The position numbers and the translations under genes were made by a program. Source: Candidatus Moanibacter sp. (lineage in GTDB: Bacteria > Verrucomicrobiota > Verrucomicrobiia > Opitutales > UBA2987). Taken from it: 64,000 nucleotides of DNA. The notes under the pieces were generated by a model, which did no database searches, was not told where the DNA came from, and saw nothing but the letters and a program-made list of their open reading frames with translations. This document shows positions 32,740-37,181 of the stretch, one piece after another. Numbering within the stretch: the stretch's first letter is position 1; each line of letters opens with the position of its first letter. Where the stretch lies: assembly GCA_965215885.1 (NCBI GenBank), contig CBDCEW010000088.1, positions 35,853-99,852 on the forward strand. Direction: 5' to 3'.

Positions 32740-33254
32740 CTTAGGCAGATCTGTCGGATGATGGTGGTTTTTACCTCCAGCAGGCCGGTGCTTAACTCGA
32801 AGTGAATCGTACGATTATTGAGGCCGCCCAATTCTTCTTCTGTAACCTGTAGATGCTCGCGCGCCAGGATGTTCTTTACTGCCTCGATATTACGCGCCCC
32901 GATATTGAAGAGTTCGCTTTCGCTGAGGTCCGATGCTCCGCCGGCCAGGAAGATCCTCAAGCTATTGCGGATTACCCCTAGGCGATTCAGCTCTTTCAAA
33001 AGAGCACGCATGCCGGTGTCGACAAAAATGGAAGGCTGAGAGAGAGCCCGCTCCGGAGACATGCTGGAATCGGGCAGCATGAAATGGGCAAGCCCGGAAA
33101 TGATCTGAATTGGGTCGTATATCACGATTCCGAGACAGGAACCAAGGGCGTAGGTACTGAGGATATAGTTGGGTGAACTGGAGATGCCAAAGTCTCCAAC
33201 ACCGACAACGATGTTTTCAGTTGTGATATTCAGGGTTATGGGTGCTTCCGGCAC
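32736..33254 (-). CDS. cheD: Chemoreceptor glutamine deamidase CheD
   Basis: TYALGSCLG, GLAHFMLP, LAGGA, NIGARN. Confidence 0.92.
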   Translation of the reverse strand: MPEAPITLNITTENIVVGVGDFGISSSPNYILSTYALGSCLGIVIYDPIQIISGLAHFMLPDSSMSPERALSQPSIFVDTGMRALLKELNRLGVIRNSLRIFLAGGASDLSESELFNIGARNIEAVKNILAREHLQVTEEELGGLNNRTIHFELSTGLLEVKTTIIRQICLR

Positions 33255-33326
33255 GACTTTTTATACGTTAGTTCTTAAAGAGTCCTCTTCAGATCCTTCA
33301 TGATACGGCTGATTCTACCCACGGCT

Positions 33327-33806
33327 TTACTCTAAATGTTGTGCGATTTTCGAGAGGGTGAGAGTTGGGTTTGATTCAGCGATTTCCTTCACCTGCAAGA
33401 GGCGATCAATACGGTGGGCGAGTTTTCCCAGCGGGCTTTGAGCATTAACCGTGAGCCCGTTCCCCACAGTGGTGGAGAGGATGATTCGGGAATCTTTCGT
33501 GCGTGCGAACCGGATTGAACCCTCCCGGATGAATTCATGCGAGAATCCCGCCAGAGCGGGATCGTTCAACAGATCACGAGTAAGGTGTAGTAGATTAGCG
33601 TCGAGATCGGCGATGTTGTATATTCGGTGGGTCCTGAGATATTGAATGAGCTCAGTGTCATTGAGAGTTTCATTCGTGAGGGTCAGTACTTTCTCAAAAT
33701 CGGGCACCGTTGCGTTTCCGGTATCCGGGTTGACTCGCCTAACGCTGAAGAGGGATGATAGTTCCCTGCCGATGGCTATAGCGCTGGTCGCAAGTATTGG
33801 GTGCAT
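33327..33806 (-). CDS. Hypothetical protein
   Basis: 159-aa ORF co-oriented with cheD; its start abuts the IS110 insertion site. Confidence 0.6.
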   Translation of the reverse strand: MHPILATSAIAIGRELSSLFSVRRVNPDTGNATVPDFEKVLTLTNETLNDTELIQYLRTHRIYNIADLDANLLHLTRDLLNDPALAGFSHEFIREGSIRFARTKDSRIILSTTVGNGLTVNAQSPLGKLAHRIDRLLQVKEIAESNPTLTLSKIAQHLE

Positions 33807-33962
33807 TAGGAATCTTATAGTAGCTCCAGGTTATTCATCCAAGGGGCCGAGTGGAGCCGCAGGAAAAACTCGGCGAGGCCCCTTTGTGAATAACTTGGCC
33901 GATCAGTGGTTGGCGATGGGTCAAAGAGTTTGTTTGGCTAAGGGTGAAAATATTCAAAGGCA

Positions 33963-34109
33963 GCCGTCCACTACGAACTTAGGAATCAGTCCGAAGAGGA
34001 CTTCCGACAGAATTTCGAGTGGACGGCCTGCCTGGATGACCGAAAACGAACACTCAGTTTACATCCTCATAACAGGATCCAACTATAAGGACTTCGCCTG
34101 GACATCCAG
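33963..34109 (+). ncRNA. IS110 bridge RNA (target- and donor-binding loops)
   Basis: Two stem-internal loop-hairpin modules with guides TTAGGAATC and TCCGACAGA (target), CTCAGTTTAC and ACTATAAG (donor); transcript may start near 33830. Confidence 0.88.
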
Positions 34110-34152
34110 TGCCTTTGAAAAAAGCAAAAAGACAAACTAAAGGAACAAAGGG

Positions 34153-35463
34153 ATGCAGAAAAGGGAAAAAACAAATCGATATAGTGTGGTGATAGGAATT
34201 GATTGGGCGGATCAGAAAAACGATCTGTGGATCATAGAGAGCGAAACGGGAAAAGGGACCCATCGACAGGTGGCGCAGGATGCGGTCAGCTTGCACGAAT
34301 TTGCCGTAGAGATGAGAGAAAAGTATGCCAGCGTGGGCAAGCGCATGGCCATGGTGGTGGACCAGAAGCGAGGAGGGTTGATCAACTTTCTGATGGGCTT
34401 GGAGTTTGTCGATATCTATCCAGTGCATGCGGCCAGGGCGAAGGATTATCGCCGGGCGCTGTATCCATCAGGGGCCAAGAGCGACCCGGTCGATGCGCAA
34501 ATACACGCGGAGTTTTTCCTCAAACATCCCGAGCTTTTTATCAAATGTTTCATACCTGACACGGCCCAAACACGGGAGCTGAACCTGTTGTGCGAGGACC
34601 GCCGTGGATTCGTCGATCAGGCTACCAGCCTCGAACAGCAGTTGGGCAGTTGTCTGAAGCAATATAACCCTTTGGTCTTGAAATTGTTCGATGATCTAGG
34701 CAGTGGCCTGTGCCTGCACTTTATATTGCGTTGGCCGACCCTCAAGAAGCTGCACAGAGCATCGGAGGGTGTCTTGCGAAAGTTCTTCTATAAGCACAAC
34801 TGTCGCAGTGACGCCAAAATCCAGGAGCGTCTCGAATTGATCGGTAACGCACGAGCCTTGATCGAAGATGCAGCCATCATTGAAGCATCCAGCAGAAAAG
34901 CACAGACGTTGGCCGGACAGCTTTTGACCCTGTGCCCGCAGATCAAAGCGTATGAGAAGCGTATCAGGGAGCTATTCAGAAGCCATCCCGATGCAGCCGT
35001 GTTCAGTGGCATTCCCGGAGCCGGCGAGGTCATGAGTCCCCGGTTGCTGTGCGCGTTCGGGACCGATCGTTCGCACTTCGAAACGGCCCAGAACATGACC
35101 CAGTGGAATGGATCCGCTCCGGTCACGATCAACAGCGGGCAGGACAAAAGAACCGGACAACCGAAACGAATGGTCAACTGGCGGTGGGCGGCTCCTACCT
35201 TCGTGCGGCAAAGTTTCGTTGAATTTGCCGAACATTCGATCCGAAACTGTGCCTGGGCAAAGGCCTTTTACCAGATCAAAAAAGAACAGGGCAAACCCCG
35301 CCAAACCATTCTTCGTGCCCTCGCTCTCAAGTGGACCCGCATTCTGTTTCGCTGTTGGCAAAATAGCGAACGCTACGATGAGCAAAAGTATCTCCAATCG
35401 CTCCAACGCACCGGTTCACCGGTGTGGAAAAGACTTCAGCAAGCAAATGCCAACGCCTTGTAA
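34153..35463 (+). CDS. IS110-family DEDD recombinase/transposase
   Basis: GIDWA, KSDPVDA, IPGAG, APVTINSG (catalytic Ser loop); intact 436 aa. Confidence 0.95.
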   Translation: MQKREKTNRYSVVIGIDWADQKNDLWIIESETGKGTHRQVAQDAVSLHEFAVEMREKYASVGKRMAMVVDQKRGGLINFLMGLEFVDIYPVHAARAKDYRRALYPSGAKSDPVDAQIHAEFFLKHPELFIKCFIPDTAQTRELNLLCEDRRGFVDQATSLEQQLGSCLKQYNPLVLKLFDDLGSGLCLHFILRWPTLKKLHRASEGVLRKFFYKHNCRSDAKIQERLELIGNARALIEDAAIIEASSRKAQTLAGQLLTLCPQIKAYEKRIRELFRSHPDAAVFSGIPGAGEVMSPRLLCAFGTDRSHFETAQNMTQWNGSAPVTINSGQDKRTGQPKRMVNWRWAAPTFVRQSFVEFAEHSIRNCAWAKAFYQIKKEQGKPRQTILRALALKWTRILFRCWQNSERYDEQKYLQSLQRTGSPVWKRLQQANANAL

Positions 35464-35494
35464 ACACAACATGAGAAAAAACTCAAAAAATCCC

Positions 35495-35517
35495 TTGACG
35501 GACTACCTCAGTTTTCT
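35495..35517 (+). promoter_or_regulatory. -35 half (TTGACG plus 17-nt spacer) of the IS110 circle-junction promoter
   Basis: Joining to the left end gives TTGACG-GACTACCTCAGTTTTCT-TATAGT (-10 at 33816-33821). Confidence 0.8.
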
Positions 35518-35605
35518 GTCGGACTTTGCATTATTAACATCTCCGTGGTCTGGATTTCACGGTGACAGATCGATAATCCGACCGGGATCAGACCGACAGA
35601 TTCCT
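35518..35605. mobile_element. MITE family C remainder (left TIR split by IS110)
   Basis: Homologous to 58411-58507 and 61928-62025; ends CCGACAGATTCCT. Confidence 0.85.
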
Positions 35606-35608
35606 CTG

Positions 35609-35769
35609 AAGAAAATGAAACTGAATTTTGGGGACGCATTAACTCACTTTATCTGTTATTGACCTAGAAAGTGCATGACTCTTACCGGGAAAGAGACAAT
35701 TTGGCCCTGATGCACGCATCGCGAGCATTCTTGGAGTTCGCTTCCACCAAAATTCAGTTTCATTTTCTT
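35609..35769. mobile_element. MITE family B (161 bp)
   Basis: Perfect 23-bp TIR AAGAAAATGAAACTGAATTTTGG. Confidence 0.85.
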
Positions 35770-35807
35770 GTCTCTAGTCCCGGCAAGCCGGGACTAGCCC
35801 GCTTTTC

Positions 35808-37181
35808 TCACTGATAGACCAGAATTCTTTGATTAATTGGATCTACCAGATTGTGTTTTTGAATTTTCTCCAGGGTTCTGTCACTCAGTTCGCGGTCTTC
35901 CGGTATAAGAAGTAAACCGGTTGGGCTGTAGAGCCCTTTTGCCAGGATCATACCGGATTCCAACTCCGAAAAGAGTAGTTCTCTTACTTTGCGTGGGAGT
36001 TGGACCATGCGGGTCGCCTTGAGAAAAAGACGGACTGCCTCGGGTTCGAATGTTTTGCCTGACTGTCGGAGGATCGCCTCAATAGCTTCTTCCTTGGGGA
36101 GCCCGCACTCGACGAAGTAGACGGCAATTGCCAGAATCCGGGCGGGGCGCGGAATTGCCTCCCGGGCCAATCGGTCGGGATATCCTTTGCCGTCCCATCG
36201 TTCATGATGTGCGCGAATAGTCTCCCCGACCAGAGATAGATTATCGATAAAGGATGCGAGGGTCTGACCATAAATGGGGTGGTTGTATATGATCTCCCTT
36301 TCTCGCACACTCAAGGATTCCGGACTCTCCCTGGCTCTATGGAGCAGATCTCTGGATATACCGATGAGACCGATATTTTGCAGCCAGGCGCTGACGGTAA
36401 GTGTGCGCTGGTCTTTGGAGGAAAGGTTTCCCGAGTCACTGATTTGACGACAGATGTTGACAATTGCTTTGGTTTCCTCTCCCAGCACCGGGTGGTAAGC
36501 GTCAATAATGCGATAGCAGAGTTCGAGGGAATGCTCAAAGTTGGATTTAAGCGCCGTGTTCGCCTCGTCAAGGGCGAGCTTTTGTTGGCTCAGGATTTGA
36601 TTCTTTTTTTTGAGTTCCGCATTCGAAAGGGAGAGCCTCTCGTTGAGTGTTAGGGTATCGGCTTGTAGTTTTCTGTTGACCTCAAGGAGTTGAAACCTCT
36701 GCACTGCGTTCTTGACCGTGGCGAGGAGTTCTTCTCGAATCCAGGGCTTTGCCAGAAATCTGAATATCTCACCTTTATTGACCGCTTCAATCACGGTGTT
36801 AAGGGTAAGCGCGCCAGTTATCAGGACACGGGAAGCATTTGGCTGCTGCCCTTTTACGAGGGCCAGGAACTCGAGGCCGGTCATTTCATCCATTCGTTGA
36901 TCCGATATGATGACGGCAAAGGAGTCCTCTTTTATATACTCGAGAGCCTTTATAGGTGATAGGGTTTCGACCACCCGATAGCCCTCAGCAGTTATCGTAT
37001 CATTGAGGGCAAGCAGAATATCCTCGTCGTCGTCGACAATCAGAACCGGACATCTCCCGATTTCGTTGACTCTTGGCGCGCCGTTGCTCTCGCGCGACAG
37101 ATGCTGAGCCTGCATATCGGCGGCACTACCTTCCGCGGAGAGCGAGCTCATGATAATTGCAGGTTCGTGTTGATTCGCCAT
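35808..37181 (-). CDS. Response regulator with degenerate HD-GYP domain
   Basis: REC (IVDDD, ISDQRM, AKPW), coiled coil, HHERWDGKGYP; HDIG replaced by QNIG. Confidence 0.88.
   Translation of the reverse strand: MANQHEPAIIMSSLSAEGSAADMQAQHLSRESNGAPRVNEIGRCPVLIVDDDEDILLALNDTITAEGYRVVETLSPIKALEYIKEDSFAVIISDQRMDEMTGLEFLALVKGQQPNASRVLITGALTLNTVIEAVNKGEIFRFLAKPWIREELLATVKNAVQRFQLLEVNRKLQADTLTLNERLSLSNAELKKKNQILSQQKLALDEANTALKSNFEHSLELCYRIIDAYHPVLGEETKAIVNICRQISDSGNLSSKDQRTLTVSAWLQNIGLIGISRDLLHRARESPESLSVREREIIYNHPIYGQTLASFIDNLSLVGETIRAHHERWDGKGYPDRLAREAIPRPARILAIAVYFVECGLPKEEAIEAILRQSGKTFEPEAVRLFLKATRMVQLPRKVRELLFSELESGMILAKGLYSPTGLLLIPEDRELSDRTLEKIQKHNLVDPINQRILVYQ

Follow-up and report, generated by a model that had tools for sequence, protein, structure and literature searches.

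An IS110-group insertion sequence with a predicted IS621-type bridge RNA at the end of a short dispersed repeat in Candidatus Moanibacter

Insertion sequences (ISs) of the IS110 family recombine by strand-exchange chemistry at a short core, and one of them, IS621, targets repetitive extragenic palindromic (REP) sequences. According to the portions of Durrant et al. (2024, PMC11208160) available to us, bridge RNAs are predicted in 85.7% of IS110 and 93.0% of IS1111 elements, some orthologues have longer right target guides (RTGs), the core of IS621 lies within all four guide pairings, and a promoter at the junction of its circular form drives both the RNA and the recombinase. In the IS1111 group, as described in the same text, the RNA lies downstream of the gene, the right end is long and the inverted repeats are subterminal. 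The targeting of repeats is known elsewhere in the family, from REP sequences for ISPpu9, ISPpu10 and ISPa11 to attC sites (PMC12288879 for ISPpu9, available in part). Here we describe a locus in a 64,000-nucleotide stretch of DNA from Candidatus Moanibacter sp. (Verrucomicrobiota; GenBank assembly GCA_965215885.1, contig CBDCEW010000088.1, positions 35,853 to 99,852 of the forward strand), referred to below as the window. An interpretation drawn from the letters of this DNA (hereafter the sequence-only reading) had placed in it an IS110-group element with an IS621-type bridge RNA directed at the end of a miniature inverted-repeat transposable element (MITE), and the element and its type of RNA are borne out by the Pfam domains, the predicted fold, the copies at the target and the covariation of stems and guides. 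The plus-strand segment 33816-35517 of the window is very probably, as predicted from these lines of evidence, an intact and probably active IS110-group IS that moves by bridge-RNA-guided recombination.

The extent of the element was defined by comparing its copies in the source genome (G000), a 6.36-Mb draft in 105 contigs. This genome contains ten full copies, which are ~100% identical and have intact open reading frames (ORFs) of 436 amino acids, along with a piece at a contig edge, a fragment of 211 nt and a relic of the left end, 86 nt long. Because, in the nine copies read at both ends, the similarity stops exactly at ...AGGAAT/CT-TATAGT on one side and ...CAGTTTT-CT/GTCGG on the other, the element measures 1,702 bp, one copy of the core being counted, and has no inverted ends. 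No terminal inverted repeats (TIRs) are present in it, and every copy read has a CT core at each junction (33814-15 and 35516-17 in the window). Its non-coding ends are 337 nt (left) and 54 nt (right) long and its RNA lies upstream of the gene, unlike the arrangement of the IS1111 group. The bridge RNA is identical in all ten copies, and the genome has no orphan RNAs. Nine of the copies, hereafter the target-type copies, are inserted at AGGAAT/CT/GTCGG, which is all that is invariant among them; the positions facing the two outermost nucleotides of the left target guide (LTG) and the last nucleotide of the RTG vary, and each copy has different flanks past the ~15-bp target. A full repeat can be recognised around at least six of the nine, which occupy either end of it.

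The left end is predicted to specify an RNA with two loops, each bounded by an outer stem (33963-33972/34018-34027 and 34032-34038/34103-34109) and containing an inner hairpin. The first loop carries the left target half as its top strand reads, together with the complement of the right half, and the second does likewise for the joined right-end/left-end donor (Table 1). The LTG matches the left flank at nine of nine positions and the RTG is complementary to the right junction at nine of nine, while the left donor guide (LDG) and the right donor guide (RDG) match the element's own ends at 9/10 and 8/8 positions, respectively. As a control for chance, we shuffled the 331-nt left end 20,000 times: the single matches arose in 26, 32, 68 and 140 shuffles, two or more together in 2, and all four in none. 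The segment 33830-34150 folds at -117.4 kcal/mol, compared with -83.8 +/- 5.5 for its shuffles (z = -6.17), and the fold holds both stem-bounded loops. The guide strings, their coordinates, the outer stems, the inner hairpins and the CT at both junctions were all as the sequence-only reading had given them, and the folding it proposed recovered both loops. In two metatranscriptome runs from one study, the bridge-RNA region was assembled as a short contig of its own (33869-34102 and 33808-34108), and both contigs stop within 7 nt of the 3′ end of the donor loop; contigs from DNA runs span 33814-35526. These contigs are at most a faint hint of a discrete RNA, given that they come from a single study with possible DNA carry-over and that contig depths are not comparable.

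The 436-amino-acid protein encoded downstream of the RNA matches PF01548 (DEDD_Tnp_IS110; E 3.7e-17, 63 bits against a cut-off of 29) over residues 14-173 and PF02371 (Transposase_20; E 2.2e-9, 38 bits against a cut-off of 21.3) over residues 283-374. In an alignment of 25 homologues D17, D111 and D114 are conserved, and position 70, an aspartate in this protein, is a glutamate in 21 of the 25 and an aspartate in four; we take these four positions to be the DEDD tetrad. S328 is invariant (25/25) and lines up with the ESG motif of ISCro4. An AlphaFold model computed from 25 homologues had a predicted local distance difference test score (pLDDT) of 87.9 and a predicted template-modelling score (pTM) of 0.82. 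Its ten best Foldseek matches in the PDB were all chains of IS621 (8WT6, 8WT9) or ISCro4 (9T56), with E values of 7e-13 to 1.5e-11 and template-modelling scores of 0.59-0.64 on the target; Nop5 and TIGR-Tas followed, from 9e-6. The size of the recombinase, which had been singled out as large, is normal for its clade, since among the best 120 of 1,566 homologues most are ~418-445 amino acids long.

A contig scan with the single protein yielded no relatives, and the same scan repeated with an alignment yielded 79 loci. A covariance model (R1), built from only two RNAs, those of G000 and of G006, a genome from another genus of the same family, detected the two-loop RNA at 55 of the 79 homologous loci, always upstream of the gene and on the same strand; the remaining 24 had no match at E up to 1. 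The loci with the RNA came from Verrucomicrobiae, Terriglobia/Bryobacterales, Pirellulales, Alteromonas-like and other records. In the resulting alignment, which is fitted to the model and in that respect favours structure, 94.2% of the cells pair, as against 31.8-44.3% when the partners are slid, with none of 500 shuffles reaching any of the measures and with changes on both sides in 35 of 38 pairs. Minus-strand matches of the model over the target loop (window 33923-34035, L016) were considered as a second RNA and rejected, the stem being palindromic.

Across these elements the donor guides are conserved (CTCAG..., CTATAAG) and the target guides differ. We placed the ends of the elements by the donor guides only, and both ends were found in 33 of 58 RNA-model rows. 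For 19 distinct guide sets, the target guides agreed with their own flanks at 11.05 of 14 positions on average (left 6.05/8, right 5.00/6), whereas the 342 non-cognate pairs of guide and flank agreed at 5.68 of 14 (left 3.26, right 2.42). None of 10,000 permutations was as high as the observed total of 210, the maximum being 165, although relatedness and shared targets among some of the elements inflate this statistic; the pattern is obvious on inspection. The sequence-only reading had staked itself on covariation between guides and targets across homologues, and the homologues display it. These results, namely guide matches beyond chance, covarying stems and target guides that track the flanks, support the bridge-RNA mechanism.

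Two features of the Terriglobia and Bryobacterales homologues were observed in the course of this comparison. Two Bryobacteraceae elements (L043:1155-1242 and L061:1155-1242) have an extra module, consisting of a target loop only, between the left end and the normal bridge RNA. The LTG of this module (GCGGAGCC) is a better fit to the left flank of its own element than is the main LTG (GCGTTGCC), and is exact to the flank of L077/L078; judging from these matches, the two elements may have a natural RNA with two target loops. Furthermore, the right flanks of L043, L061, L074, L075, L077, L078 and L086 (Terriglobia, Bryobacterales), which come from different assemblies, are nearly alike (CT/ATCCTCCGCTCA), so their common target is probably also a conserved or repeated sequence.

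The G006 genome provides a closer comparison, with 26 matches to an ortholog that is 79% identical. Its copies lie at CTAGGAGT/CT/GTCGGAC and its LTG is TTAGGAGGC, so that target and guide share an A-to-G change; in the target loop, the inner hairpin differs from that of G000 by a C-G to G-C swap. The cognate 15-mer TAGGAGTCTGTCGGA (TAGGAGT/CT/GTCGGAC) occurs 198 times in G006 and four times in G000. In G006 it is often found as inward-facing pairs 52 bp apart, which constitute a ~67-bp mini-repeat. Such an AGT-variant pair is often followed, ~244 bp later on the same strand, by an AAT-type site (for instance at G006 C1:170226-170482), which suggests a larger composite unit.

When the right and left ends (RE and LE) are joined, the sequence reads TTGACG, 17 nt and TATAGT, with the -35 half supplied by the right end and the -10 half by the left end; we predict that this is a promoter put together across the joined ends. 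Homologous elements preserve its register in 19 of their 26 distinct junctions. A simple promoter scan, whose counts were no higher than in shuffles, found no comparable promoter inside the integrated left end and one weak site in the flank (33730-33759). By analogy with IS621 and its relatives, the element would excise as a circle, and the joining of its ends would create this promoter, which would in turn drive the bridge RNA and the recombinase. The donor loop of the RNA would then hold the circle junction and the target loop the MITE end, the recombinase would swap strands at the CT core, and the inserted element would come to lie in the terminal repeat of the MITE in one fixed orientation.

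Several observations weigh against this mechanism, in addition to the two limits given above, the fitting of the stem alignment to its model and the relatedness of the elements in the permutations. The LDG has one mismatch to the right end, and in G006 the LTG is mismatched beside the core in nine of the ten copies read and matched in one. End placement failed in 25 of the 58 rows, an end being either not found or off the locus. A search of Rfam with positions 33000-36500, at E up to 1, returned no family, that is, no curated model for this RNA. No circle (RE-LE) junction and no empty site appeared in four runs, all of them assembled contigs, which drop rare forms. The protein is only weakly similar to IS621: phmmer reached ISCro4 at E 1e-4 and IS621 at 2e-4, in the C-terminal part only, and the equivalog model NF033542 (IS110 family RNA-guided transposase) scored 118.9 bits (E 2.5e-34, residues 13-405), below its cut-off of 140. 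The clade is divergent, and its predicted placement in the IS110 family is given by the Pfam domains, the modelled fold and the RNA, not by this equivalog.

The tenth full copy in G000 is a further point against the mechanism. This copy (C84:54652-56355, minus strand) lies at ...CACCTCAGTTTA/CT/TATGGGGAGC..., which is not a MITE end. Its left flank agrees with the LDG at 10/10 positions and its right flank with the RDG, in reverse complement, at 6/8, and there is no fit to the target guides. The site thus appears donor-like and would fit a donor-loop-directed 'half-match' insertion, as reported for IS621 in the accessible part of a 2026 preprint. We also considered that this copy lies between the ends of an older tandem IS110 element and dropped the idea (tblastn best E 1.1, no blastn match beside the copy). 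The host site is probably within a membrane-protein gene. Elsewhere in the genome, a solitary relic at C6:7650-7860 (minus strand) resembles the left end of the IS and its 5′ stem-loop, with ~77% identity over 86 nt, and has no gene.

We then characterised the repeat that serves as the target. The target (T)TAGGAAT-CT-GTCGGA(C) is the TIR of a ~94-bp, non-coding MITE-like repeat with well over 100 copies. This TIR reads GGAATCTGTCGG(A/T)C and is perfect over 12-14 bp; for the 13-mer AGGAATCTGTCGG, the genome has 256 occurrences where 0.17 would be expected. A search tolerating one mismatch gives 252 TIR sites in forward and 252 in reverse orientation, which include 125 adjacent inward-facing pairs <=200 bp apart, in size classes of 94-95 bp (68 pairs), 86 bp (11), ~63 bp and 33 bp (17). 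The repeat measures 94 bp from GGAAT to ATTCC, and 98 bp with the usual flanking TA; a small repeat with TIRs, as the sequence-only reading had it, is therefore correct, and the length of ~97 bp that it gave is not. In the window the IS splits one copy into 33807-33815 and 35518-35604.

The MITE label is reasonable, not proven. It is possible, though distinctly the less likely view, that the repeat is a host sequence resembling REP or bacterial interspersed mosaic elements (BIMEs) with no history of transposition, in which case the IS would resemble IS621, ISPpu9 and ISPpu10 and would not be the 'parasite of a parasite' that had been proposed. No target-site duplication is visible in the 40 repeat copies listed, and no autonomous partner with the ends of the repeat was found among eight long TIR pairs in this genome. 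The pair at C68:35882-37736 is an IS1380-family element (515 amino acids, ~20 copies) with its own ends inside the repeat, that at C103:53707-57564 is a tandem pair of a 1.92-kb ISNCY-like element inserted inside the repeat, and those on C16 and C13 enclose ordinary dehydrogenase genes. The repeat often adjoins other short repeat modules, and REP targeting is the commonest habit reported for the IS110 family in the parts of the literature available to us. On the other side, the perfect 12-14-bp TIRs and the discrete size classes speak for a MITE. The distribution of the 13-mer is strikingly patchy, with 256 occurrences in G000, 591 in G006 and 0 or 1 in each of the other seven of nine genomes of the bacterial family, which fits a horizontally spread mobile element better. 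Because neither a duplication nor a partner was found and yet the distribution is so patchy, we keep 'MITE-like' as a working label and a REP-like host repeat as a live alternative.

Other mobile and repeated sequences accompany this repeat. The source genome is rich in other ISs, and both the ISNCY-like and the IS1380-family elements are inserted inside the same MITE-like repeat; the former encodes a 556-amino-acid DDE transposase, accounts for well over 100 BLAST rows in G000 and forms tandem pairs. In the window, 35605-35650 and 35740-35800 contain a second short repeat family (...GAAGAAAATGAAACTGAATTTTGGGG...) and a third motif (...TCTAGTCCCGG...CCGGGACTAG), which often adjoin one end of the MITE-like repeat and thereby form composite repeats.

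A wider proposal, which we offer more tentatively still, is that this IS110 lineage and the MITE family travel and evolve as a host-parasite pair, the IS acting as a natural RNA-guided disabler of MITEs, and that the C84 copy is a natural half-match insertion, a kind of event described up to now for IS621 only, in vitro and in editing data. The IS could disable MITEs because each insertion splits a MITE terminal repeat. The pairing is suggested by the occurrence of the IS in the same two of the nine genomes, G000 and G006, which belong to different genera, and by the LTG base of G006, retuned to the TIR variant of the ~67-bp mini-repeat that is abundant there.

Two further explanations concern the mechanism itself. 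It is very unlikely that the protein chooses the site by the DNA sequence or hairpin of the repeat, the RNA being a structured 5′ leader that regulates translation of the transposase. The repeat has, 13 nt deeper, the sequence ATTCCTA, with which the left target half TAGGAAT can pair, and, in the accessible parts of the respective texts, a stem-loop in the target adds specificity for ISPpu10 (preprint 10.64898/2026.03.19.712850) and ISPpu9 has a regulatory structured leader (PMC12288879). Against a choice by the protein, across the 19 guide sets, which represent several phyla, the guides change with the flanks against a background of constant donor guides and a constant protein fold; the single-base difference between the targets of G000 and G006 is mirrored in the LTG; and the sole off-site copy fits the donor guides, including the LDG throughout. 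Least probable of all, the copies could be relics, no longer mobile, spread by segmental duplication of MITE-containing DNA, as the lack of circles and empty sites in the contigs and the draft state of the assembly might allow, but all ten are ~100% identical with intact ORFs and no frameshifts, share no long flanks beyond the ~15-bp target, and occur at either end of the repeat.

The features of the locus that are predicted to underlie bridge-RNA-guided recombination are collected in Table 1.

Table 1. Features of the IS and of the interrupted repeat, in window coordinates
Feature	Position	Strand	Basis
Left target half (TTAGGAAT) and core CT	33806..33815	+	Outer tip of the TIR of the MITE-like repeat; nine copies have AGGAAT/CT at the junction
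IS110-family insertion sequence, 1,702 bp	33816..35517	+	Ten copies ~100% identical, similarity ending exactly there
TATAGT, predicted -10 half of the junction promoter, where the right donor half also starts	33816..33821	+	RE-LE junction reads TTGACG, 17 nt, TATAGT
5′ stem-loop of the non-coding RNA	33830..33894	+	Computed fold; kept in the G006 ortholog
Target-binding loop: outer stem, ACGAA/TTCG clamp, inner hairpin 33988-34002	33963..34027	+	Fold and covariance alignment
LTG TTAGGAATC	33979..33987	+	Identical to 33806-33814
RTG TCCGACAGA	34003..34011	+	Reverse complement of 35515-35523
Donor-binding loop: outer stem, ACGAA/TTCG clamp, inner hairpin 34063-34078	34032..34109	+	Fold and covariance alignment
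LDG CTCAGTTTAC	34053..34062	+	Matches the right end (35507-35516) at 9/10 positions and the flank of C84, the atypical copy, at 10/10
RDG ACTATAAG	34082..34089	+	Reverse complement of 33814-33821
Gene for the 436-amino-acid DEDD/Tnp recombinase	34153..35463	+	PF01548, PF02371; structure model with pLDDT 87.9
TTGACG in the right end, predicted -35 half of the junction promoter	35495..35500	+	End-joining of the sequence
Left donor half (CTCAGTTTT) and core CT at the right end	35507..35517	+	Guide match and copy comparison
Rest of the interrupted 94-bp MITE-like repeat, beginning with the right target half GTCGGAC; distal TIR 35593-35604	35518..35604	+	>50 BLAST matches in the genome

Immediately to the left of the element, the minus strand (33327-33806) carries an ORF of 159 amino acids with no assigned function. 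Its predicted start codon (33804-33806) adjoins the junction between the MITE tip and the IS, so any promoter region of this ORF is taken up by the repeat and the IS.

The locus leaves the published picture of how IS110 elements work unchanged. What it adds is an ortholog that is apparently active, present in several copies and clear in its limits, from a little-sampled clade of bridge recombinases of ~420-440 amino acids, whose records are Verrucomicrobia-like or come from Acidobacteria, Planctomycetes and Gammaproteobacteria. The covariance model and the 19 pairs of guides and targets form a ready comparative set for this clade, and the longer natural guides are of some interest for the screening of orthologs toward specific genome insertion. 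The comparison of the two genera shows a natural reprogramming of the guide that follows a variant of a mobile repeat, and the C84 copy shows one natural insertion that fits the donor guides and not the target guides.

The element had been described as a new natural variant, a description that is overstated: its RNA architecture, its CT core, the position of the RNA in the left end and the junction promoter all agree with the available text of PMC11208160. Nor is the targeting of one mobile element by another new: that the target is the TIR of a small repeat stands, and IS4321/IS5075 provide the precedent. In the full-text literature, with most subscription journals excluded, no account was found in which an IS110 element has a MITE end as its target.

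Comparison with the described systems places the element as follows, the statements on those systems being limited to the portions of their reports at hand. As in IS621 (Durrant et al. 2024, PMC11208160; structures 8WT6-8WT9), the RNA is located in the left end upstream of the gene, with the target loop preceding the donor loop. The left guide of each loop corresponds to the top strand and the right guide is complementary, the CT core falls within the pairings, a sigma-70 promoter, predicted in the present element, is split over the RE-LE junction, and the recombinase has the DEDD and Tnp fold. Unlike IS621, the protein is longer (436 against ~326-328 amino acids) and ~16-17% identical to it in structural alignment. 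The target comprises 8 + CT + 6-7 nt (16-17 bp) instead of the 11-bp ATCAGGCCTAC, the leader before the target loop is longer (~140 nt with extra hairpins), and the target is the end of a MITE-like repeat. Like ISPpu9 and ISPpu10 of Pseudomonas putida (PMC12288879; 10.64898/2026.03.19.712850), the element inserts into a highly repeated palindromic intergenic sequence; ISPpu10, moreover, has a strong hybrid promoter at its junction and a target that can form a stem-loop, as here. It differs from these two in host phylum and repeat family, and in being known from sequence alone. No antisense or hitch-hiking small RNA was noticed with it, although no search aimed at one was made. With IS4321/IS5075 it shares membership of the DEDD family and a target that is the TIR of another transposable element, there of the Tn21 family. 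Those elements, however, are members of the IS1111 group, in which the RNA follows the gene and the inverted repeats are subterminal, and their target is a large transposon, not a non-autonomous repeat of ~94 bp. The element belongs to the published IS621-type system, from which it departs by differences of degree: a divergent and longer protein, a longer leader and a longer target.

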